Source: a virus (taxonomy: Duplodnaviria > Heunggongvirae > Uroviricota > Caudoviricetes). From it: a stretch of 8,718 bases of DNA. This document shows positions 1 through 8,718 of this stretch, one piece after another. The translations under genes were made by a program, and so were the position numbers. The notes below the pieces were generated by a model. It ran no database searches, had not been told where the DNA came from, and saw only the letters and a program-made list of their open reading frames with translations. The DNA lies in the IMG/VR virus record IMGVR_UViG_2529292985_000034; one strand, written 5' to 3'. Position 1 is the stretch's first letter, and each line of letters starts with the position of its first letter.

Positions 1-1218
1 ATGAACAAACTGAGCGATACCTTGCTAAGGAAACTTCATGGTAAGCCAGCGGAGAAAAACACGTTTTATAGTGATGGCGGAAACCTGAGCGTGAAATATT
101 TAACATCAGGGAAATTGACCTGGTATTTCACATACAGGGCCGGAACGGGAAGGGAGACACGACCCGAACGCATTAAGCTGGGAAGTTATCCTGATCTGAG
201 CCTGAAATCAGCCAGGGAAAAAGCCGCCCAGTGTCGCGCATGGCTGGCAGAGGGGAAAAATCCACGTCATGAGCTTAATTACACCGTACAGGAAGCGTTA
301 AAGCCGGTAACGGTTGGCGATGCGCTCACCTACTGGCTTGAGTATTACGTAAAGGAAAACCGCGTGGATTATATCGCCCTGAAAAGGCGACTTAATAATC
401 ACGTAATACAGCAGATTGGTGCTATGCCGCTGGATAAATGCGAGCTACGGCACTGGCTGGCCTGTTTTGACCAGGTGGCAAAGCGAACGCCTGTTACTGC
501 CGGATTCGTGCTACAGGCGTGCAAACAGGCGCTTAAGTTCTGCCGTAGGCGGCGCTATGCAATCAGCAACGTTCTGGACGATCTGAACGTGGCGGACGTT
601 GGGAAAAAACCGGATATAAGCGAACGTGTCTTAAGTAACAAAGAACTTGGCGAATTATTGCAGGCACTGGACAAAAAAATATTCTCCCCTTACTACGTCG
701 CGTTAATCCGCCTCCTGATTGTCTTCGGAGCCAGAACGGTAGAACTGAGGTTATCGGAGATCGGGGAGTGGGATTTTACGGAAATGCTATGGACCGTTCC
801 GAAGGAGCACAGCAAAACGAAGGTCGCAATATTCCGGCCCATACCGGAAGCGATCCTGCCGTTCGTCACGCAGCTGGTGGAGCAGAACAGGCACACGGGC
901 TTATTGCTGGGGGAAGTGAAACAGGAGGCCAGCGTATCGCAGTATGGAAGATTAGCGCACAGGAGGCTTAATCATCCTCACTGGTCACTGCATGACATCC
1001 GGCGCACCTTTACAACCATGCTGAACGATTTAGGCGTTGATCCGCATGTCGTGGAGCAGCTTACAGGCCACCAGATGCCAGGAATGCAGCGAGTTTATAA
1101 TCATTCCCGTTATCTGGATGCTAAACGCAATGCGCTGGATATGTGGACGGAGCGGTTAGGGATACTGGCGGGAACACATGAAAACGTAACCACGCTACCA
1201 GTAGCCAGAAGAAAATAA
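1..1218 (+). CDS. int: P4-family tyrosine recombinase / integrase (405 aa)
   Basis: Full ORF from ATG at 1 to TAA at 1216-1218. N-terminal region (YSDGGNLSVKY...TWYFTYR) resembles the arm-binding domain of P4-type integrases. C-terminal catalytic signature residues are visible: ARTVELR (box I Arg), HSKTK (Lys), HDIRRTF (His-x-x-Arg), VYNHSRYL (Tyr). Confidence 0.9.
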   Translation: MNKLSDTLLRKLHGKPAEKNTFYSDGGNLSVKYLTSGKLTWYFTYRAGTGRETRPERIKLGSYPDLSLKSAREKAAQCRAWLAEGKNPRHELNYTVQEALKPVTVGDALTYWLEYYVKENRVDYIALKRRLNNHVIQQIGAMPLDKCELRHWLACFDQVAKRTPVTAGFVLQACKQALKFCRRRRYAISNVLDDLNVADVGKKPDISERVLSNKELGELLQALDKKIFSPYYVALIRLLIVFGARTVELRLSEIGEWDFTEMLWTVPKEHSKTKVAIFRPIPEAILPFVTQLVEQNRHTGLLLGEVKQEASVSQYGRLAHRRLNHPHWSLHDIRRTFTTMLNDLGVDPHVVEQLTGHQMPGMQRVYNHSRYLDAKRNALDMWTERLGILAGTHENVTTLPVARRK

Positions 1219-1235
1219 TTTTTTTCGTGTTTTTT

Positions 1236-1251
1236 CAGTATGCGCATACTG
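1236..1251. repeat. Perfect 16-bp palindrome CAGTATGCGCATACTG just downstream of int
   Basis: Read directly: CAGTATGC / GCATACTG are exact reverse complements. It is preceded, not followed, by T-tracts, so it looks more like a protein-binding dyad than a plus-strand terminator. Confidence 0.4.
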
Positions 1252-1263
1252 TATATGCGAACA

Positions 1264-1313
1264 GATACAACGTGCAACAATGAGCAACAATGTGGAACAA
1301 CCACGAACAAGAG
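1264..1313. repeat. Four to five phased 10-bp repeats with AACAA core
   Basis: Tandem 10-mers at 1274 (GCAACAATGA), 1284 (GCAACAATGT), 1294 (GGAACAACCA), 1304 (CGAACAAGAG), plus a degenerate copy at 1264 (GATACAACGT). Period is exactly 10 bp, in the int-alpA intergenic region. Confidence 0.4.
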
Positions 1314-1404
1314 GCGAAAAAGCATACAGATTTATAAGTGGCTGATTTTTAATGTGTCACTGGTTTTTTATACACTAGCGAATCACTCTTTAAAGAGCGA
1401 GAAA

Positions 1405-1433
1405 AAAGGCATGAAACAATATTTTATGCCTTT
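1405..1433. terminator. Putative intrinsic terminator hairpin in int-alpA spacer
   Basis: Perfect 8-bp stem AAAGGCAT (1405-1412) / ATGCCTTT (1426-1433) with a 13-nt loop. Flanked by an A-run upstream and TTTGTATT downstream, so it could terminate in either orientation. Confidence 0.3.
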
Positions 1434-1584
1434 GTATTAACATGAATTTAAAATATTTTATTCTTACTGTTTCATTTTCTGTAAATCATACATCCTCAAT
1501 ATTTGCCATTCATCACTCTAGCGGGAACAATACGACACAATAAGACACCTGATGACTCTTTAAGAAACGAAAGGGGGGGCAATA

Positions 1585-1773
1585 GTGTTAAGCACTGATC
1601 GGTTTATACGTGAAAAAGAATGCGAAAAACTAACCGGCCTTAGCCGTACGTGTCGCTACCGCCTGGAAAAGGCCGGACAATTCCCATCACGTCGTAAACT
1701 TGGCGGTCGTTCCGTTGGCTGGTCTTTATCCGAGGTTCTGGCCTGGAAGGATAGCTGCAAGGCAGTTCATTAA
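1585..1773 (+). CDS. alpA: AlpA/Vis-family phage transcriptional regulator (excisionase-like, 62 aa)
   Basis: GTG start at 1585 preceded by a G7 Shine-Dalgarno tract (1573-1579). Sequence DRFIREKECEKLTGLSRTCRYRLEKAGQFP matches the AlpA/Vis helix-turn-helix signature (ELTGLSRSTIYRL...G.FP). Position just downstream of a P4-type int is typical. Confidence 0.8.
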   Translation: MLSTDRFIREKECEKLTGLSRTCRYRLEKAGQFPSRRKLGGRSVGWSLSEVLAWKDSCKAVH

Positions 1774-1917
1774 TCACGCTGGCGGCACGCAGCCGCCACA
1801 CATCAATCATCTGAACACAGAGCTATAACCATGAAGATTGAATATACGCCAGAACGTGGGCGGGGATTCGTTCGCCCTGGTGAAACTGAAAAACAACAAA
1901 ATTGGGGTTTTTCAGGT

Positions 1918-1953
1918 ATAAAAAAAGCGGCCCCGAAATGGAGCCGCCTTTCT
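1918..1953 (-). terminator. Rho-independent terminator (minus-strand orientation; possibly bidirectional)
   Basis: Stem GCGGCCCC (1927-1934) / GGAGCCGC (1940-1947), 7 of 8 pairs, 5-nt loop. On the minus strand it is followed by a U-run (plus-strand A-run 1918-1926). It lies between the convergent alpA and minus-strand small genes. Confidence 0.5.
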
Positions 1954-2042
1954 GAACAGATAACCCGCTGCGCCGTTTGTGTGTGTGATCCCAAACATAA
2001 GCACGGGGATGATAGCCGCTATCAGGCTGGTGGGCAATGCAA

Positions 2043-2216
2043 TCAGTCTGGTTCAGTTCGTTGCCATACCTGCAATGAGCGCTTTTCCCTGTACTCTTTA
2101 AGGAATTGCTCAAGGGCAAAAGCACATGGTGCGAATCTTTCTGATTCATGCTCTATCTTTCTGCGCCGTCTTTTCCGTGCCGGTGATAATGTTTTGGTCA
2201 ATTCTTTATCGGTCAT
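2043..2216 (-). CDS. Hypothetical small basic protein (57 aa; alternative start at 2231 gives 62 aa)
   Basis: Minus-strand ORF downstream of the RHH gene. The internal ATG at 2216-2214 has AGGA 7 nt upstream. Arg/Lys-rich N-terminus (ARKRRRRK). The minus-strand terminator about 90 nt downstream supports a two-gene transcript. No recognisable family. Confidence 0.35.
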   Translation of the reverse strand: MTDKELTKTLSPARKRRRRKIEHESERFAPCAFALEQFLKEYREKRSLQVWQRTEPD

Positions 2217-2273
2217 TGTGTTGTCCTGCATAGCAATGCGCCGTAATACCTCACACCACGGCGCTGATAGTGA

Positions 2274-2453
2274 TTATTCTGATTCTTTGGCCTTGCGGCG
2301 CTGGCGGCGTTTGATCTCGCCTTCAAGTGCCGAAACGATAAATTGCCCTGTACTTTCGCCATCTTCCTTTAAATTTTCTACAGCATCAGCTATTGCGTGT
2401 GGTACTCGAGCCTCAAGCTTTTTGGATTTTGCATTAACTGCTTTTGTTGCCAT
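2274..2453 (-). CDS. Ribbon-helix-helix (Arc/CopG-like) DNA-binding protein, 59 aa; candidate repressor
   Basis: ATG at 2453-2451 with GAGGA 8 nt upstream. KKLEARVPHAIADAVENL fits the RHH pattern: beta-strand with alternating polar residues, Pro, then helix A. C-terminal basic tail. Divergent from the operon promoter that carries the triple repeat. Confidence 0.6.
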   Translation of the reverse strand: MATKAVNAKSKKLEARVPHAIADAVENLKEDGESTGQFIVSALEGEIKRRQRRKAKESE

Positions 2454-2474
2454 ATCTGATTTCCTCGTTATTAG

Positions 2475-2555
2475 GTGGCTGACAGTATACACACAAGAAA
2501 ACGGAAAAACACTATTGACGTGGCTGACACCCGTTACTAATATAGTGGCTGACAC
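2475..2555. promoter_or_regulatory. Operator-like triple direct repeat GTGGCTGACA
   Basis: Exact 10-mer GTGGCTGACA at 2475-2484, 2520-2529 and 2546-2555. Copy 2 lies in the promoter spacer; copy 3 lies just downstream of the -10 element, over the likely start site. Each copy has outer GTG/CAC dyad symmetry. Confidence 0.5.
2515..2543 (+). promoter_or_regulatory. Sigma70-like promoter for the rightward operon
   Basis: TTGACG (2515-2520), 17-bp spacer, TAATAT (2538-2543). About 100 bp upstream of the first operon ORF. Confidence 0.45.
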
Positions 2556-2647
2556 CTTTATCAAGGTAATCGATGAAAAGACAAAGCCCCGCAAGTGTCG
2601 TTACCACTCGCAGGGCTTCTAACCAACAACGTAAACTAGGAGCCGTT

Positions 2648-2845
2648 ATGGTTGCTGTAAATCATATACCACACCTTGTACACACACAAACGGCCTTTGT
2701 GTGGCGTTTTCTGGCACTGAGTGCCGGAGAATCTCAAATCATCCACGTAACCGCCTGGACGGAACGCGAAGCGCGTAACCGTTGCCCGTCCGGTTGTGTT
2801 GCTGTATTTGCCGCCCGTATTCGTCAGGAGGTGCGCCATGATTAA
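2648..2845 (+). CDS. Hypothetical protein, 65 aa (first gene of early operon)
   Basis: ATG at 2648 with GGAG 5 nt upstream (2639-2642). Stop overlaps the start of the next ORF. The longer 2573 start of the tracked ORF has no RBS and runs through the promoter. Confidence 0.55.
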   Translation: MVAVNHIPHLVHTQTAFVWRFLALSAGESQIIHVTAWTEREARNRCPSGCVAVFAARIRQEVRHD

Positions 2846-3050
2846 TCTGTCACTTACTGACCTTAACCGCATTCAGTTTCGTGAGAAATTCACAGGGCAG
2901 CTACTGGTCAATGTGGATAAAGGTCGCGTGGTGTGTAATTACCACTTACCAGATGAAGCAATTGTCGCCACAAGGGAATCATTACAGGAAATCACAAAAC
3001 GTGCCGGAATGATTAACACGAATATTCAGGGGATGCTTTATGCACAATAA
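2838..3050 (+). CDS. Hypothetical protein, 70 aa
   Basis: ATG at 2838 with AGGAGG 6 nt upstream (2826-2831). Overlaps the preceding stop by 8 nt and the next start by 11 nt (translational coupling). Confidence 0.6.
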   Translation: MINLSLTDLNRIQFREKFTGQLLVNVDKGRVVCNYHLPDEAIVATRESLQEITKRAGMINTNIQGMLYAQ

Positions 3051-3279
3051 AACCACACCGGACGCAGCCGCCGAAGCCATCAAAACGCTGATGCACGCGC
3101 TGATTGATATTTCTGTTATCGCGGACAGGGCACATAAGCACGCCACCAGCGAAACAGAATATGCCGGTGCTTTCGTTCCTCACTCACTGGCTGTCATGCA
3201 ATTTAGTGCTGATACGGCGCTGAATGAGGCCAAAGCTATCCTGATTGCTGATTGTGAAAATGGGGGGGGTTATGCGTGA
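3040..3279 (+). CDS. Hypothetical protein, 79 aa
   Basis: ATG at 3040 with AGGGGA upstream. The C-terminus (ENGGGYA) is encoded across a G8 homopolymer. Its stop overlaps the next start (ATGCGTGA). Confidence 0.6.
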   Translation: MHNKTTPDAAAEAIKTLMHALIDISVIADRAHKHATSETEYAGAFVPHSLAVMQFSADTALNEAKAILIADCENGGGYA

Positions 3280-3505
3280 TGATCGTTTTAATTCCCTGAA
3301 ACAGGAATTTTCCGGCGTTCCTGATGATGCGGCTGATGCGCTTTCGTCAATGCCAGAACTTATTAGAGCGGCTTTTTTCTTACTTTCCACGAGAGAATAT
3401 AAATCAACGGGGCTTGATGTACTGAATATCGCCGCCGATTATGCGGAATATGTGGCAGAGGCGCGTTATAGAAGAAAATTTCCTGAGGATGTAAGCCATG
3501 CGTGA
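3272..3505 (+). CDS. Hypothetical protein, 77 aa
   Basis: ATG at 3272 immediately after the G8 tract, which acts as RBS. ATGCGTGA overlap with the upstream stop. The same junction geometry recurs at 3498. Confidence 0.6.
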   Translation: MRDDRFNSLKQEFSGVPDDAADALSSMPELIRAAFFLLSTREYKSTGLDVLNIAADYAEYVAEARYRRKFPEDVSHA

Positions 3506-3731
3506 TATTTACCACCAAACAATAGACCGCGCATTTCTTGCACTTTCTCACAGTGAAAACATGATGGAAATATTGCGCATATGGCTTGAAACACTTGGCG
3601 ACAATGAACGCGACAAACAAAAATCAAGAATTGCCACAGCATTAATAACGCTTCTTGAGCCTGTAATAATGGAACTGCAAGAAATAGATCTATTGCACGA
3701 CAGATATAAAGAACAGCACACCGGAGAATAA
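3498..3731 (+). CDS. Hypothetical protein, 77 aa
   Basis: ATG at 3498 with GAGGA 9 nt upstream. ATGCGTGA overlap with the upstream stop. Predicted largely helical, acidic. Confidence 0.6.
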   Translation: MRDIYHQTIDRAFLALSHSENMMEILRIWLETLGDNERDKQKSRIATALITLLEPVIMELQEIDLLHDRYKEQHTGE

Positions 3732-3736
3732 AAATA

Positions 3737-4036
3737 ATGAAACTTAAATATTCTGGCTTAACTGCCAGTGGCAACACTCACCCTAAATTTACGCGCGGTG
3801 ATATTTACCGCGACCAGTACGGCGGCACGGTAATGATTAAGGACGTGGAAGAACGGCGCGTAACCTACCGCCGTGAAGGTTACGAATATGATTGCGTGAT
3901 GCCTGTTTATCAGTTCCGGCGTGATTTTTCTCTGGTACAGACCGCGCCGCATAACGTGCCCACCAGCAACGCCAGGGCACGGGCAAACATCCAGAAGCTG
4001 AAAACCATGGTTAACGGATTCAGGGGCAAGAAATGA
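3737..4036 (+). CDS. Hypothetical protein, 99 aa
   Basis: ATG at 3737 with GGAGA 10 nt upstream. Stop overlaps the start of the replication gene (ATGA at 4033-4036). Basic, Tyr/Arg-rich. Confidence 0.65.
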   Translation: MKLKYSGLTASGNTHPKFTRGDIYRDQYGGTVMIKDVEERRVTYRREGYEYDCVMPVYQFRRDFSLVQTAPHNVPTSNARARANIQKLKTMVNGFRGKK

Positions 4037-5433
4037 AAAGCGCACCGAACTTAAAAAAACAGCCTTACGACAAGATGACCGAAGTCATTATTTTTGCGGG
4101 TAGTGATGCCTGGGCACATGCGAAACAGTGGCAGGAACAGGACGGGCGACTGGCTGGCGATAATGTGCCTCCCGTTGTGCTGGCTGATGATCAACTGGAT
4201 GAACTGGCAGACCTGAGAATCATCGACGAGGGGCGCTATTGTGTCCGGCTGTACAAGGCAGGCCACATCAGGCCATCAAATATTAATGCCATTGCGCACA
4301 AGCTGGCGGCGGCGGGTGTAACTGATGCGAATTATTACCCCGAAGGGATGCACAGCCATATGCGGGAGAACTGGCGCGAATACCTGGAACGGGTGCGCGG
4401 GAAAGAGCCGGCGGAAGAAAAAAACCACCAGCGAAAAACCACGCTACCGATGAGCGTTGGATCTACCGGATACGACACGCAACTGGATTACGTGGTTAAG
4501 GGGATTATTCCGGCGGTATCGCTATGCAGCATATACGGGGCTAGCGGGTCCTATAAATCATTCCTTGCCGGATCGTGGGCGTGCCATGTTGCCACTGGTC
4601 GCCAGTGGGGAGGCCGCAGGGTTGCACATGGTGCGGTTCTCTATGTGGTTGGTGAAGGCGGTATAGGTGTTCCGCGTCGTGTAAAAGCCTGGGAGGTTGT
4701 GCACGATGAGCAGGTGAAAAATCTGTATCTGGTAAACCGCCCCATCTTTCCGGCTGCCCCGCTTGATGTTGATGAAATGGTTATCGCTGCCCGTCAGGTG
4801 GAGCGGGAAACGGGTAAACCTGTACGCATGATTATTCTGGATACGCTGGCGCGTTGCTTTGGTGGGAATGATGAAAATGATTCCCGTGATATGGGGGCGT
4901 TTATCCGTGGTTGTGACGAACTGAAACGACGCACAGGGGCCACGGTGCTGGTGGTTCACCATTCCGGCAAGGATGAGACGAAAGGCGCGCGCGGTTCCAG
5001 TGCATTTCGTGCTTCGCTGGATGCTGAATACCGGATACGCAGGGAGGACGCAGGAAGCGAAGCGCTGGTTATCTCATGCACCAAAATGAAGGACGCGGAG
5101 GAACTCAAAGAAGCCGCATATGACTTACGCGTGGTGGAGCTTTTTACCGACGCTGACGGTGAATTAATCACGTCGCTGGTGGTGGTGGATGATCCGCGCC
5201 CTCCTGTTGAACTGGAGCGCATCGAGGAGGCAGGGAACAAGACGGAAAACCATACCGCGCTATGGGGGTGCATCCGTTCACGCACACAGAACGGCGACAA
5301 GTGCACGATCCCGCTGTTACGTGATGACATGAAAAAGCTGGGGTATGAAATGAAAAACTTCCGGCGCTGGCTGTACAAGCTGGAAAAAGATGGGGTTATT
5401 CGTATCGATGGGGATGATGTAGCGCCGCTATAA
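4033..5433 (+). CDS. Replication protein: toprim-like N-terminal domain + RecA-like/RepA-type P-loop ATPase (primase/helicase of the island), 466 aa
   Basis: Walker A GASGSYKS, Walker B-like VRMIILDT, and an N-terminal acidic toprim-like segment (VIIFAGSDA ... LADDQLDE). Last gene of the coupled operon; iteron array immediately downstream. Confidence 0.85.
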   Translation: MKSAPNLKKQPYDKMTEVIIFAGSDAWAHAKQWQEQDGRLAGDNVPPVVLADDQLDELADLRIIDEGRYCVRLYKAGHIRPSNINAIAHKLAAAGVTDANYYPEGMHSHMRENWREYLERVRGKEPAEEKNHQRKTTLPMSVGSTGYDTQLDYVVKGIIPAVSLCSIYGASGSYKSFLAGSWACHVATGRQWGGRRVAHGAVLYVVGEGGIGVPRRVKAWEVVHDEQVKNLYLVNRPIFPAAPLDVDEMVIAARQVERETGKPVRMIILDTLARCFGGNDENDSRDMGAFIRGCDELKRRTGATVLVVHHSGKDETKGARGSSAFRASLDAEYRIRREDAGSEALVISCTKMKDAEELKEAAYDLRVVELFTDADGELITSLVVVDDPRPPVELERIEEAGNKTENHTALWGCIRSRTQNGDKCTIPLLRDDMKKLGYEMKNFRRWLYKLEKDGVIRIDGDDVAPL

Positions 5434-5624
5434 AAGTGAGGAGCAAAAGCGAGGGGGATAGAAAGAGGGCCAAAATTAGCCCGCTCTCCCTCACTTTTCG
5501 ACCTGTATACATCCTCAAAAGTGAGGGGTAAAAAAATACTTATGAAACACACACATAGAAAAACCGAAAATCCCAACTGCGACGAAGTGAGACGCTTGAA
5601 AAAGTGAGGCGAAAAAGTGAGAGG
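5432..5624. repeat. Iteron array (AAAGTGAGG family) with A-rich spacer; putative island replication origin
   Basis: Copies at 5432-5441, 5517-5528, 5584-5592, 5599-5610, 5612-5624; variants at 5445-5457 and 5461-5469; an inverted copy at 5489-5498. The inverted copy forms a perfect 10-bp inverted repeat with the 5517-5526 copy. An A-rich stretch lies at 5529-5575. Confidence 0.55.
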
Positions 5625-5633
5625 TTGCGAGAA

Positions 5634-5785
5634 ATGACCCAAAAACGCAGAGACAGAACAGAGCCAAAATATAAAGCGTTAGACATGACTGAGCACACCT
5701 TAAAGGTGGCAATCAGAACGATAGACCGCCACACGCGGGAAGGATACGCGAAGGAACATCCCGACCTGATAAGCGCATTCATGAC
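5634..5785 (+). pseudogene. Small island ORF whose 3' end is replaced by the IS600 terminus (doubtful gene)
   Basis: ORF beginning MTQKRRDR... runs in frame into the IS left inverted repeat, where it meets a TGA belonging to the IS. It overlaps the iteron region, so coding status is uncertain. Confidence 0.25.
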
Positions 5786-5849
5786 TGAGGTAGCCTGAGT
5801 TTAACGGACACTCCTTCCTGAAATAGAATGGCATCAGAAGGAGCTAATA

Positions 5850-6152
5850 ATGAGCAGAAAAAACCAACGTTACTCTAAAGAGTTCAAAGCCGAAGCTGTC
5901 AGAACGGTTCTTGAAAATCAACTTTCGATCAGTGAAGGCGCTTCCCGATTATCCCTTCCTGAAGGCACTTTAGGACAATGGGTTACCGCCGCCAGAAAAG
6001 GGCTCGGTACTCCTGGTTCCCGCACGGTGGCTGAACTGGAATCTGAAATTCTGCAACTGCGTAAGGCGTTAAATGAAGCTCGCCTTGAGCGAGATATATT
6101 AAAAAAAGCAACAGCGTATTTTGCACAGGAGTCGCTGAAAAATACGCGTTAA
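5850..6152 (+). CDS. IS3-family transposase OrfA (HTH, leucine zipper), 100 aa
   Basis: MSRKNQRYSKEFKAEAVR... is typical of IS3-family OrfA. Slippery A7 run at 6101-6107 near its 3' end. Confidence 0.9.
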   Translation: MSRKNQRYSKEFKAEAVRTVLENQLSISEGASRLSLPEGTLGQWVTAARKGLGTPGSRTVAELESEILQLRKALNEARLERDILKKATAYFAQESLKNTR

Positions 6153-6187
6153 TCGAACAATGGCGACAACAATTTCCCATTGAAGCG

Positions 6188-7006
6188 ATGTGTCAGGTAT
6201 TTGGTGTATCCAGGAGCGGTTATTACAACTGGGTACAGCATGAACCCTCAGACAGAAAACAAAGTGATGAGCGGCTAAAACTGGAGATTAAGGTGGCACA
6301 TATCCGCACTCGCGAAACATATGGAACCCGGCGGCTCCAGACGGAGCTGGCAGAGAATGGCATCATCGTTGGTCGTGACCGACTGGCACGTCTTCGTAAG
6401 GAGCTAAGGCTACGCTGTAAGCAGAAACGCAAGTTCAGAGCGACTACGAACCCGAACCACAATCTGCCAGTTGCGCCAAATCTGCTGAACCAGACGTTCG
6501 CTCCTACAGCACCAAATCAGGTCTGGGTGGCGGACCTGACGTATGTTGCCACACAGGAGGGATGGTTGTACCTCGCTGGCATCAAAGATGTTTATACGTG
6601 CGAAATTGTCGGCTACGCCATGGGAGAGCGCATGACAAAAGAGCTGACAGGTAAAGCCCTGTTTATGGCGCTCAGGAGCCAGCGCCCACCTGCCGGGCTA
6701 ATCCACCACTCTGATCGAGGTTCACAGTACTGCGCATACGATTACCGGGTCATACAGGAGCAGTCTGGTCTGAAAACATCAATGTCGCGTAAAGGTCACT
6801 GTTACGACAACGCTCCGATGGAAAGCTTCTGGGGAACGCTGAAAAATGAGAGCCTGAGCCACTATCGTTTTAATAACCGGGATGAAGCCATCTCAGTAAT
6901 ACGGGAATACATTGAGATTTTCTACAATCGTCAGCGTCGTCACTCTCGTCTGGGGAATATCTCCCCGGCAGCCTTCAGGGAAAAATATCATCAGATGGCT
7001 GCTTAA
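6188..7006 (+). CDS. IS3-family transposase OrfB (DDE catalytic domain), 272 aa; expressed as OrfAB fusion by -1 frameshift
   Basis: DDE motif residues in WVADLTYV, HHSDRGSQY and YDNAPMESFWGTLK. The orfB frame is -1 relative to orfA and is open upstream back to the A7 slippery site. Confidence 0.9.
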   Translation: MCQVFGVSRSGYYNWVQHEPSDRKQSDERLKLEIKVAHIRTRETYGTRRLQTELAENGIIVGRDRLARLRKELRLRCKQKRKFRATTNPNHNLPVAPNLLNQTFAPTAPNQVWVADLTYVATQEGWLYLAGIKDVYTCEIVGYAMGERMTKELTGKALFMALRSQRPPAGLIHHSDRGSQYCAYDYRVIQEQSGLKTSMSRKGHCYDNAPMESFWGTLKNESLSHYRFNNRDEAISVIREYIEIFYNRQRRHSRLGNISPAAFREKYHQMAA

Positions 7007-7049
7007 AAAAAGAACAAATGGTAGTGTCCGCTATTGCCAGTACACCTCA

Positions 7050-7894
7050 GTTTACTGGTGGGCTACATCGCCTGGCTGGCGACCGCTTACCGGATGAGCT
7101 TTTCCCGCGAAATCAATCTGGGCCTGGCGCAACATGAGTTCGAATTGTTCTGTCAGCCTTTGCTTAATGCGCGCAGCCAGCAATGTATTGGTGTAGAGAT
7201 TTTGCTGCGCTGGAACAATCCGCGTCAGGGCCGGATTTCACCGGATGTGTTTATTCCTATCGCGGAAGAACATCATTTAATTGTGCCACTGACCCGCTAT
7301 GTGATGGCAGAAACCATTCGTCAGCGCCATGTTTTCCCGATGAGTAGTCAGTTTCATGTTGGCATTAACGTCGCACCCAGCCATTTTCGCCGTGGTGTGC
7401 TGATAAAAGATCTCAATCAGTACTGGTTTAGCGCTCACCCGATTCAGCAACTGATCCTCGAAATCACCGAACGCGATGCCTTACTGGATGTTGATTATCG
7501 GATTGCCCGCGAGCTACATCGTAAAAACGTCAAACTGGCGATTGATGACTTCGGCACCGGCAACAGTTCATTTTCCTGGCTTGAAACATTACGTCCTGAC
7601 GTGCTGAAAATTGATAAGTCATTTACCGCAGCTATAGGTTCTGACGCGGTTAACTCGACGGTGACCGATATCATCATCGCGCTGGGGCAAAGACTGAATA
7701 TTGAACTGGTGGCGGAGGGCGTGGAAACGCAAGAACAGGCGAAGTATTTGCGCCGTCATGGCGTGCATATTTTGCAAGGGTATTTGTACGCACAGCCGAT
7801 GCCGCTACGTGATTTTCCCAAATGGCTGGCGGGCAGCCAACCGCCGCCCGCCCGGCATAATGGACATATCACGCCCATTATGCCGTTACGTTAA
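7050..7894 (+). pseudogene. EAL-domain c-di-GMP phosphodiesterase gene, 5'-truncated by IS600
   Basis: EAL-domain motifs ELFCQP, DDFGTG, KIDKSF and VAEGVET. A transmembrane segment (LSLLVGYIAWLATAY) precedes the EAL domain. The reading frame is open right up to the IS end with no credible native start, consistent with a CSS-type membrane phosphodiesterase that has lost its N-terminal half. Confidence 0.8.
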
Positions 7895-7960
7895 CGCTGA
7901 TATGACTTTCCGTGTCAAACCGGAATCTCTAATTTTGACGATTTTCTTTTTAGGTTTAAT

Positions 7961-8145
7961 TCCCTGAGGGCGACGTAGCAGTAAATCCGACGGTGAATCA
8001 CGCTGATATTCGCGGGTTGGATACCGCATTACAGAGGTCCGTCATATGAGCCTGCCACTTTCTTACGTCGCGAATCAGCTTTGTTCCGCCGTCGCCAAGC
8101 GCTAACGTGGGTTACTCTTGTACCGGGCTACGTCGCCTTCAGGGA
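7961..8145. repeat. 185-bp structured palindromic element, closed by 19-bp inverted repeats
   Basis: TCCCTGAGGGCGACGTAGC (7961-7979) pairs with 8127-8145 at 18 of 19 positions. Internal inverted repeats include GCTGATATTCGCG (8002-8014) with CGCGAATCAGC (8069-8079) and GTAAATCCGACG with CGTGGGTTAC, on different centres. Lies 18 bp 3' of the IS110-family transposase stop. Confidence 0.5.
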
Positions 8146-8163
8146 ACTGGTTATTCTCATTTT

Positions 8164-8718
8164 TTATTTGTGACATTGTGGTTGTTGTGCGACAGACATT
8201 GCTATTCGGCCCATATCCCAGATAAAACCCGCCAGCTCACGTGCAACAGCAACAATTGTAATATTGACATTCTTTCCTTTGGCCTGAAGTTTTCGATACC
8301 TCTTACAAAGCCTGAGTTGAGCATCCCATGCTCTGTCAATGACGGGGCGGGGTAAATTTTCCTGCCTTTTTTGTATTGCCGGACTGATGCGTGCCGGATG
8401 ACGGTAACTCCACGCTGCCTCGACCAATAGCTTTCTGGCATAGCTGTTTCCGGCTTTGGTAATGCTGCCCTGATGTCTGCTTCCACCCGATGAATATTCT
8501 GATGGCGTGATACCAAACCATGACATCAGTTGTCGTGGATGTTCAAAACGGGTCAGATCACCCAGTTCAGAAATTAATCCAACCGCAGTAATAAACTGAA
8601 TCCCTCGCATGGCTTGCAGCGCCTCTACTACCGGATACAGCCTCCATTCGGTAACGGCCTCCTTCAGGGCGGATTCCAGCCGTTCACATTGTGCCTGCCG
8701 GTCTTCTATTGTACGACG
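8164..8718 (-). CDS. IS110-family transposase, C-terminal part (N-terminus beyond window end)
   Basis: Minus-strand frame is open from the window edge to the stop at 8166-8164. GIQFITAVGLISELGDLTRF...GSRHQGSITKAGNSYARKLL is characteristic of the IS110/IS116/IS902 transposase C-terminal domain. Confidence 0.8.
   Translation of the reverse strand, partial: RRTIEDRQAQCERLESALKEAVTEWRLYPVVEALQAMRGIQFITAVGLISELGDLTRFEHPRQLMSWFGITPSEYSSGGSRHQGSITKAGNSYARKLLVEAAWSYRHPARISPAIQKRQENLPRPVIDRAWDAQLRLCKRYRKLQAKGKNVNITIVAVARELAGFIWDMGRIAMSVAQQPQCHK

Follow-up and report, generated by a model that had tools for sequence, protein, structure and literature searches.

In Gram-negative bacteria, phage-inducible chromosomal islands (PICIs) undergo unidirectional transcription without a clear global repressor, use AlpA-family proteins as master activators, and place iteron origins directly 3′ of the replication gene (PMC6092414). 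Within this group, EcCICFT073 and the related EcCI042 are rgdR-containing islands that correspond to O-island 51 (OI-51), and every analysed E. coli PICI encodes RgdR (Fillol-Salom et al. 2018, PMC6092414). AlpA acts as the helper-induced activator of island genes in EcCICFT073 (PMC6092414); EcCIEDL933 is likewise AlpA-dependent, and for both islands, dependence of induction, replication, and transfer on a helper phage has been published. RgdR (ECs1581, c1493) activates LEE1 of the enterocyte effacement locus (LEE) and type III secretion and represses motility, and it binds DNA non-specifically (PMC3378721). Two further systems bear on the present locus: Icd of phage P1, which binds FtsZ and blocks Z-ring formation with a core of amino acids (aa) 12–51 (PMC11897509), and strain ECOR61, where a phage accessory protein triggers growth arrest via six linked “prophage” genes (Silas et al., 10.1101/2023.04.06.535777). 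Here, we analyse six small open reading frames (ORFs), O1 to O6, at positions 2648–4036 of an 8,718-nt stretch of DNA (IMG/VR record IMGVR_UViG_2529292985_000034), referred to as the window. This region is probably the early rightward operon of a Gram-negative PICI of the EcCI042/EcCICFT073/OI-51 family.

Positions 1–5785 of the window are 99.9% identical to the island of E. coli 042 (NC_017626), whose annotation includes int, alpA, YlcI, an Icd-like gene, DUF4222, RepA, ssb, and PerC. In E. coli 042, the island is inserted in tqsA and spans about 11 kb, with ssb, perC, and capsid-related genes continuing past the shared part. The window copy is cut at about position 5786 by the insertion sequence (IS) IS600, some 350 bp beyond repA, and its size and attachment site lie outside the view. 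An integrase followed by an alpA-family gene at the left end, as in E. coli-type PICIs, and a replication gene followed by an iteron-type origin are both present in the window. A first-pass annotation made from the letters alone had suspected a satellite-type element, which the match to the E. coli 042 island bears out, the satellite being a PICI. The same annotation had seen in the operon a candidate for an undescribed module. This does not hold, because the EcCI042/OI-51 type of PICI has been published (PMC6092414) and rgdR was characterised in 2011 (PMC3378721); neither the element nor its two end genes are new. Of the 5426 complete E. coli genomes, 1479, or about one quarter, carry parts of the block 2454–4036.

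The six ORFs are packed far more tightly than expected by chance. Six ORFs of at least 60 aa fill 99.6% of positions 2648–4036, whereas in 1000 dinucleotide shuffles such ORFs cover 19% on average and never more than 69%, confirming that the packing is real. As initially proposed, each start codon is preceded by a Shine-Dalgarno (SD)-like purine run, which reads AGGAG, AGGAGG, GGGGA, G8, GAGGA, and GGAG for O1 to O6 and CAGGGG for repA. The proposed junction pattern, ATGA or ATGCGTGA, applies to O6/repA (ATGA, 4-nt overlap) and to O3/O4 and O4/O5 (both ATGCGTGA, 8-nt overlap each). It fails at O1/O2 (ATGATTAA, 8-nt overlap), at O2/O3 (ATGCACAATAA, 11-nt overlap), and at O5/O6, where a spacer of 5 nt replaces the overlap. 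Through the ATGA at O6/repA, which points to translational coupling, the operon runs directly into the replication gene.

All six ORFs are coding and under purifying selection. To assess selection, we compared 93 related copies, for which IMG/VR supplied 83 sequences and complete E. coli genomes the other 10, and added 28 further O2-bearing loci. The pooled ratios of nonsynonymous to synonymous substitution rates (dN/dS) are 0.38 (O1), 0.33 (O2, based on 16 distinct sequences), 0.43 (O3), 0.31 (O4), 0.33 (O5), and 0.40 (O6), compared to 0.37 for int, 0.28 for alpA, and 0.23 for RepA. In contrast, reading the same nucleotides in the two wrong frames yields values of about 0.4–1.9, nearly all of them at least 0.8. 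Since in-frame ratios are low relative to these off-frame controls, the six ORFs are genes, and the lack of purifying selection that the first-pass annotation had named as a counter-argument is not seen. Across about 120 related loci, their order is Icd-[O2/ECs1579-like/none]-O3-O4-[O5]-RgdR-[RepA/primase].

The first and the last gene belong to described families, contrary to the initial view that none of the six does. O1 matches the Icd-like model NF033153 (5e-18, 64.8 bits, cutoff 25) and is 95% identical to Sakai ECs1577. Its pairwise BLASTP alignment with P1 Icd (37% identity over 52 aa, E 2e-7) covers Icd residues 8–56 and spans the FtsZ-binding core. Among 50,697 phage records, tblastn with O1 returned a single match, located in a 16.5-kb “induced prophage”. 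An Rfam scan of the whole window (E ≤ 1) detected no immunity RNA of the C4, CI, or IsrK type, including upstream of icd. A hairpin in the 5′ untranslated region (2583–2619) was considered as a notable feature and set aside as not exceptional (z −1.5).

O6 is an RgdR orthologue. It matches DUF4222 (PF13973) with 8e-24 over residues 16–68, which take in the family core (20–68), and shares 80% identity with ECs1581 over 99 aa. The RGD motif (F-T-R20-G21-D22-I-Y) is kept in O6, as is K35. Moreover, O6 is 92% identical to its cluster-mate P0198 (AAN79962.1, UniProt ECOL6), which is likely c1493 of CFT073. The AlphaFold2 model (mean predicted local distance difference test score, pLDDT, 77; block means 90–92 over residues 21–70) suggests a disordered N-terminus, an SH3/Tudor-like barrel (23–68), and a basic C-terminal helix, and an RgdR profile sequence search of the PDB gave no significant match. 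In the 50,697 phage records, tblastn with O6 gave nothing beyond weak matches to phages of Klebsiella and Escherichia (42% over 45 aa). A weak BLAST hint of homology between RgdR and P4 orf151 was discarded at an hhalign probability of 3%. A promoter-like site, TTAATA-17-(TGT)AATAAT (3642–3670), lies within O5, 67 nt upstream of the start of rgdR, and could account for the published RgdR phenotypes in uninduced cells. Its conservation was rejected as promoter evidence, being inseparable from the coding constraint on O5.

The genes between these two ends behave differently. Profile hidden Markov model searches, which place O1 and O6 in families, give nothing above noise for O2–O5 in Pfam and NCBIfam; O2–O5 match PHROG families of uncharacterised function (Table 1). 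O2 is present in some islands and elsewhere absent or swapped for an ECs1579-like gene, and tblastn with O2 returned no match in the 50,697 phage records. O5 is a distant homologue of Sakai ECs1580 (26% identity, E 7e-7), and every sequence returned by the O5 homologue search is at least 91% identical. In RepA-anchored synteny over 80 loci of other species or genera, Icd occurs in five and DUF4222 in two (L002, L003), and O2–O5 are not detectable in any of these islands, which argues against deep conservation of the four genes. Thus, with O2–O5 absent or variable across islands, the middle of the operon appears as a fast-turnover slot framed by Icd on one side and RgdR with the replication gene on the other. 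Among loci L189, L190, and L198–L203, we also observed O2 homologues of 118–122 aa in which the 70-aa O2 domain is duplicated in tandem, and one 103-aa O2-O3 fusion.

A 194-bp control region separates the operon from the divergently oriented ylcI-type gene. It contains a sigma-70-like promoter and three exact 10-nt direct repeats, GTGGCTGACA; the copy at 2520 abuts the −35 element, the copy at 2545 covers the expected +1, and no further copy occurs in the window, even with one mismatch. Among 41 distinct ylcI–icd intergenic regions, such repeats reappear, in many cases at the same distance from the start of ylcI, and their sequence shifts with the YlcI allele (GTGGGCCACA, GTGTAAGACA, GTGTTCAACA, GTGCGATTCA, GTGTGTTTCA, and others). 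This covariation argues that YlcI is a specific DNA-binding regulator. By its sequence pattern, YlcI looks ribbon-helix-helix (RHH)-like, and it is possibly a candidate repressor for Gram-negative PICIs, with repression rather than activation judged from operator position only. Hence, the expectation of one operon driven by a regulated promoter agrees with the promoter and its three repeats, and that of repressor control gains support from the covariation. Downstream of ylcI, the probable second gene of the leftward operon (62 aa) has annotated equivalents in loci L087–L089, not in E. coli 042. For the latter, RefSeq lists a plus-strand pseudogene over 1831–2278, whose low-complexity translation is probably spurious.

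The best-supported reading of the operon is that it serves the early life cycle of the satellite. In the resident state, RHH-like YlcI bound to the repeats in the −35 spacer and the +1 region would keep the operon low. Upon arrival of a helper phage, AlpA would be induced and the operon transcribed as one mRNA, from which coupled translation would deliver the small proteins and RepA together. The Icd-like protein would then inhibit FtsZ and halt division during replication of the island from the iteron origin 3′ of repA. RgdR, whose gene always directly precedes the replication gene, has a predicted Tudor/SH3-like barrel and basic helix and would influence transcription in the host, raising LEE1 and lowering motility, and possibly also replication, and O2–O5 may be satellite-specific factors directed at helper or host. 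Untimely activation of the operon by a phage protein would arrest the cell, as in the ECOR61 precedent, and could thereby provide superinfection exclusion as well.

This last step leads to the strongest alternative, namely that the main selected role of the operon is anti-phage defence by abortive infection or superinfection exclusion. Here, a phage protein would be the trigger, the Icd-like protein the toxic effector, and the variable O2–O5 sensors or modulators. In ECOR61, a six-gene cluster from an Icd-like gene to a primase gene is needed to reconstitute the programmed cell death triggered by orf24, and suppressor insertions hit the Icd-like gene and the next two genes of 61 and 63 aa. Sizes and overlaps of these genes equal those of Sakai ECs1577–1579 in OI-51, and P4 acts similarly with Abc1. 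Further, the middle genes differ between islands, O2 being optional and alternating with the ECs1579-like gene, and the failure to detect O2–O5 in other species fits a defence role too. However, no PADLOC model matched: the ten window proteins searched against PADLOC-DB v2 hit none of its families at E ≤ 0.1. The block is always joined to a replication gene under AlpA-type control, as befits a life-cycle function, and O2–O4 of the window are not homologous to ECs1578 or ECs1579, the two small ECOR61-type genes. Mis-induction toxicity may also be a by-product, as uncontrolled replication of EcCICFT073 is itself toxic (PMC6092414). Defence by mis-induction toxicity is therefore a serious reading that is compatible with the life-cycle role, yet we hold it only tentatively, as a possibility, and it is published rather than new. 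The earlier suggestion of a host-manipulation or defence module is accordingly plausible in view of the ECOR61 precedent (10.1101/2023.04.06.535777), while its novelty falls away.

A second alternative concerns the junction of O3 and O4, where a poly-G tract of eight residues serves as SD-like run for O4. E. coli 042 carries G10 instead of G8, and has one ORF of 155 aa where the window has two. Among the 93 copies, the tract measures G7 in 26, G8 in 36, G9 in 24, G10 in five, and G11 in two. Because of this length variation, O3 and O4 form a single ORF of 154 or 155 aa in about one third of the copies (31 of 93, 33%; frame classes 31/38/24). Differing tract lengths are found on the same 450-nt flank haplotype, and O55:H7 (G8) differs from O157:H7 (G7) although the islands are near-identical over the region; homopolymer-length variation between close strains, as known from contingency loci, is thus present. 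Both halves remain open in nearly all 93 copies. For fused versus split forms, dN/dS is 0.46 versus 0.53 in the N half and 0.39 versus 0.33 in the C half, and off-frame controls give 1.0–1.4. The exact split products of 79 and 77 aa each occur on at least 912 contigs, mostly from short-read pathogen-surveillance assemblies, which argues that the G8-type split is not just a long-read artefact.

In a search of 1.84 billion representative proteins, O3/O4 relatives make up only 62 clusters. Among the distant ones, stand-alone N-half proteins (72–84 aa, e.g. ending ...ADIQEVGHA and lacking a G run) and stand-alone C-half proteins (75–77 aa) are both common. The predicted structure of O3-O4 comprises two domains joined by a low-confidence linker (predicted template modelling score, pTM, 0.47), with O3 modelled as a helical hairpin and O4 as a small helical protein. 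On these sequence comparisons, our reading is that the two-gene state seen in the window is probably ancestral; it resembles the O4/O5 junction, which has the same ATGCGTGA stop/start overlap. We further read the G run as the SD-like tract of O4, in which slippage would fuse or separate O3 and O4 at little or no cost.

Alternatively, the tract could be a true contingency switch, maintained by selection, that alternates between fused and split O3-O4 forms with differing activities. All 69 flank haplotypes of the E. coli clade retain it, even though the flanks have diverged by up to about 50% at the protein level, which speaks for such phase variation, as do the length differences inside identical haplotypes and between the O55:H7 and O157:H7 islands. 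Nevertheless, the frame classes hold about one third of the copies each, as neutrality predicts, and each half has its own start and stop and is equally constrained in every frame class. Distant relatives do with two ordinary genes, and the position of the tract as SD of O4 is a simpler cause for retention of the G run. We therefore consider a selected switch unlikely. More speculative, and in our view improbable, is the combined proposal in which the early, Icd-headed operons of E. coli PICIs serve as modular abortive-infection devices triggered by phage, with Icd as common effector, O2–O5, ECs1578, and ECs1579 as swappable trigger-specific sensors, and the poly-G switch reconfiguring one sensor in clonal populations. 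A second length-variable G run of the island lies directly upstream of the GTG start of alpA, where G7 (1573–1579) forms an SD-like tract; locus L090 has G6 instead.

Also very unlikely is that O3/O4 of the window represents one 154-aa gene turned into a pseudogene by a frameshift, which would leave five genes with one of them dead. RefSeq does list a single coding sequence of 155 aa in E. coli 042 (G10) and one of 154 aa in O157:H7 FRIK2455 (G7), and PHROG 2512 represents the fused form. Yet 67% of the 93 copies are out of frame with open halves under constraint (dN/dS 0.53 and 0.33), and the exact split products recur on the many contigs mentioned above. Moreover, the G8 state creates the same stop/start overlap as at O4/O5, and the distant relatives are stand-alone halves. 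Least likely of all, the six ORFs could be classical helper-interference genes, e.g. for capsid-size redirection or packaging hijack, as the analogy drawn in the first-pass annotation and the known interference of PICIs with their helpers (PMC6092414) might suggest, but characterised PICIs keep packaging and interference genes downstream of the replication module (PMC6092414; cf-PICI paper), E. coli 042 has its capsid-related genes downstream of repA, and none of O1–O6 resembles a structural or terminase-related family.

Several points weigh against the early life-cycle operon as we propose it. The similarity between O1 and P1 Icd amounts to only 37% over 52 aa, and FtsZ binding by O1 is presumed from it. 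The putative repression by YlcI draws on the covariation of repeat and allele only, and in the published account, Gram-negative PICIs are transcribed in one direction and have no clear repressor (PMC6092414). Promoter-like matches are not enriched, with seven found versus 6.5 expected in shuffles, although the promoter call is supported by the location of the site between the candidate operators. The equation of the ECOR61 locus with a Sakai-type operon draws on gene sizes, overlaps, and annotation and is thus an argument by analogy. Some tract lengths may be sequencing errors from older 454 or long-read assemblies. Finally, since the island is truncated and lacks ssb, perC, and capsid genes, the operon of the window may never be induced productively.

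Identifying the block as the early operon of a PICI keeps anyone from calling it a new defence system. For the families of its first and last genes, the documented effects are a block of host cell division in the one case and regulation of type III secretion and motility in the other. Beyond the known system, our additions are modest and consist of the hypervariable poly-G junction and the covariation of YlcI with its candidate operators. The questions raised are the roles of O2–O5, YlcI as the missing repressor of Gram-negative PICIs, and the regulatory meaning of the poly-G junction.

Downstream of the operon, the first 122 residues of RepA (4033–4398) share 87% and 67% identity with the N-terminal segments of the primases of UTAK-5 and Sakai (ECs1582), whereas these primases of sister islands otherwise differ from the RepA of the window. 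This segment could be a shared N-terminal domain or mark a recombination boundary directly after rgdR. In the probable origin, iterons lie at 5432, 5517, 5585, 5602, and 5615, and one more near 5490 is inverted. The 10-nt sequence CATGACTGAG occurs as an exact direct repeat at 5684–5693 and 5780–5789, the second copy right where identity to E. coli 042 stops, before IS600. The IS load of the remaining part (5786–8718) is Shigella-like, and none of the complete E. coli genomes contains this right-hand arrangement in one piece. A near-perfect hairpin with a 15-bp stem (7853–7885, minus strand) closes the pdeD fragment and is likely a terminator or repeat element; a mir-2001 match at this hairpin was dismissed as chance (22 bits versus a gathering score of 74).

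Table 1. Position and strand of the features in the window, from left to right.
Feature	Position	Strand	Remarks
Tyrosine integrase of the island	1–1218	+	Gene start annotated in E. coli 042 lies 12 nt before the window
alpA, AlpA-family regulator	1585–1773	+	PF05930, 5e-17
Probable second gene (62 aa) of leftward operon, downstream of ylcI	2043–2231	−	phrog_21027, 1.6e-15
YlcI/YnfO-family protein, divergent from operon	2274–2453	−	NF041551, 1e-16
Three exact 10-nt direct repeats GTGGCTGACA, candidate operators	2475–2554	+	Starts at 2475, 2520, 2545
Operon promoter, sigma-70-like TTGACG-17-TAATAT	2515–2543	+	Consensus match
O1, Icd-like	2648–2845	+	65 aa
O2	2838–3050	+	70 aa; phrog_340
O3	3040–3279	+	79 aa; N half of phrog_2512; phrog_5146
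Poly-G tract G8 at O3/O4 junction, SD-like run for O4	3262–3269	+	Length compared in 93 copies
O4	3272–3505	+	77 aa; C half of phrog_2512; phrog_24341
O5	3498–3731	+	77 aa; phrog_2196
O6, RgdR orthologue	3737–4036	+	99 aa; DUF4222
RepA-family (AAA_25) replication helicase	4033–5433	+	PF13481, 2e-43
Probable replication origin, AAGTGAG(G/A) iterons around AT-rich stretch	5432–5625	+	Layout as in PMC6092414
IS600 orfAB	5850–7006		Cuts the island
Truncated pdeD EAL gene	7034–7894		
ISSso6 (IS110-family) remnant	8164–8610	−	

Compared to the immI region of P1 (c4-icd-ant), the operon of the window shares the arrangement of icd-ant1, in that O1 is likewise the first operon gene and overlaps the start of the next. 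In contrast, the downstream partner of O1 is not an antirepressor, the C4-type antisense RNA of P1 immI has no counterpart detected by Rfam in the window, and the two Icd proteins share only the limited identity given above. With RgdR of ECs1581 (Flockhart et al. 2012, PMC3378721), O6 has in common the length of 99 aa, the DUF4222 domain, and the genomic position. O6 also shares A10, which is listed for the active CFT073 variant c1493 (PMC3378721), while position 36 is D in O6 and G in the other aligned sequences. The host of the window need not carry LEE.

The left operon of P4, which the first-pass annotation had chosen for comparison, proves a fair analogue. Both operons consist of a promoter, an Icd-like ORF, and small genes followed by the replication gene; P4 ORF137 (the historical “cI”) combines an Ash domain with a C-terminal Icd-like domain, and AlpA of the window shares 45% identity with P4 Vis. 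Primases of the sister islands match P4 alpha in its C-terminal part (50% identity). By contrast, P4 has the CI RNA and alpha, whereas no CI RNA was detected in the window and its RepA is an AAA_25 helicase. Pfam and BLAST revealed no homologue of P4 epsilon (PF25738), cnr (DUF5375), or orf151 among O2–O6.

The ECOR61 locus and the window both hold six linked genes with an Icd-like gene first and a replication gene last, which is a primase gene in ECOR61. The Sakai OI-51 operon matches ECOR61 in architecture and gene sizes, and its Icd and RgdR are 95% and 80% identical to O1 and O6. The ECOR61 genes hit by suppressors match ECs1578 and ECs1579 in size and are not homologous to O2–O4, and the ECOR61 Icd has a long N-terminal extension. 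In the Sakai/EDL933 version of OI-51, ECs1578 and ECs1579 stand in place of O2–O4 and a primase in place of RepA. The window further differs from known PICIs by the IS600 truncation after the origin and by the divergent ylcI-type gene with candidate operators, which the published description of Gram-negative PICIs does not mention. Nonetheless, it shares the order int-alpA-...-rgdR-rep-ori with EcCI042, EcCICFT073, and OI-51 (CP-933C), and, like the PICIs of PMC6092414, places rgdR directly before the replication gene and the iteron origin 3′ of rep.

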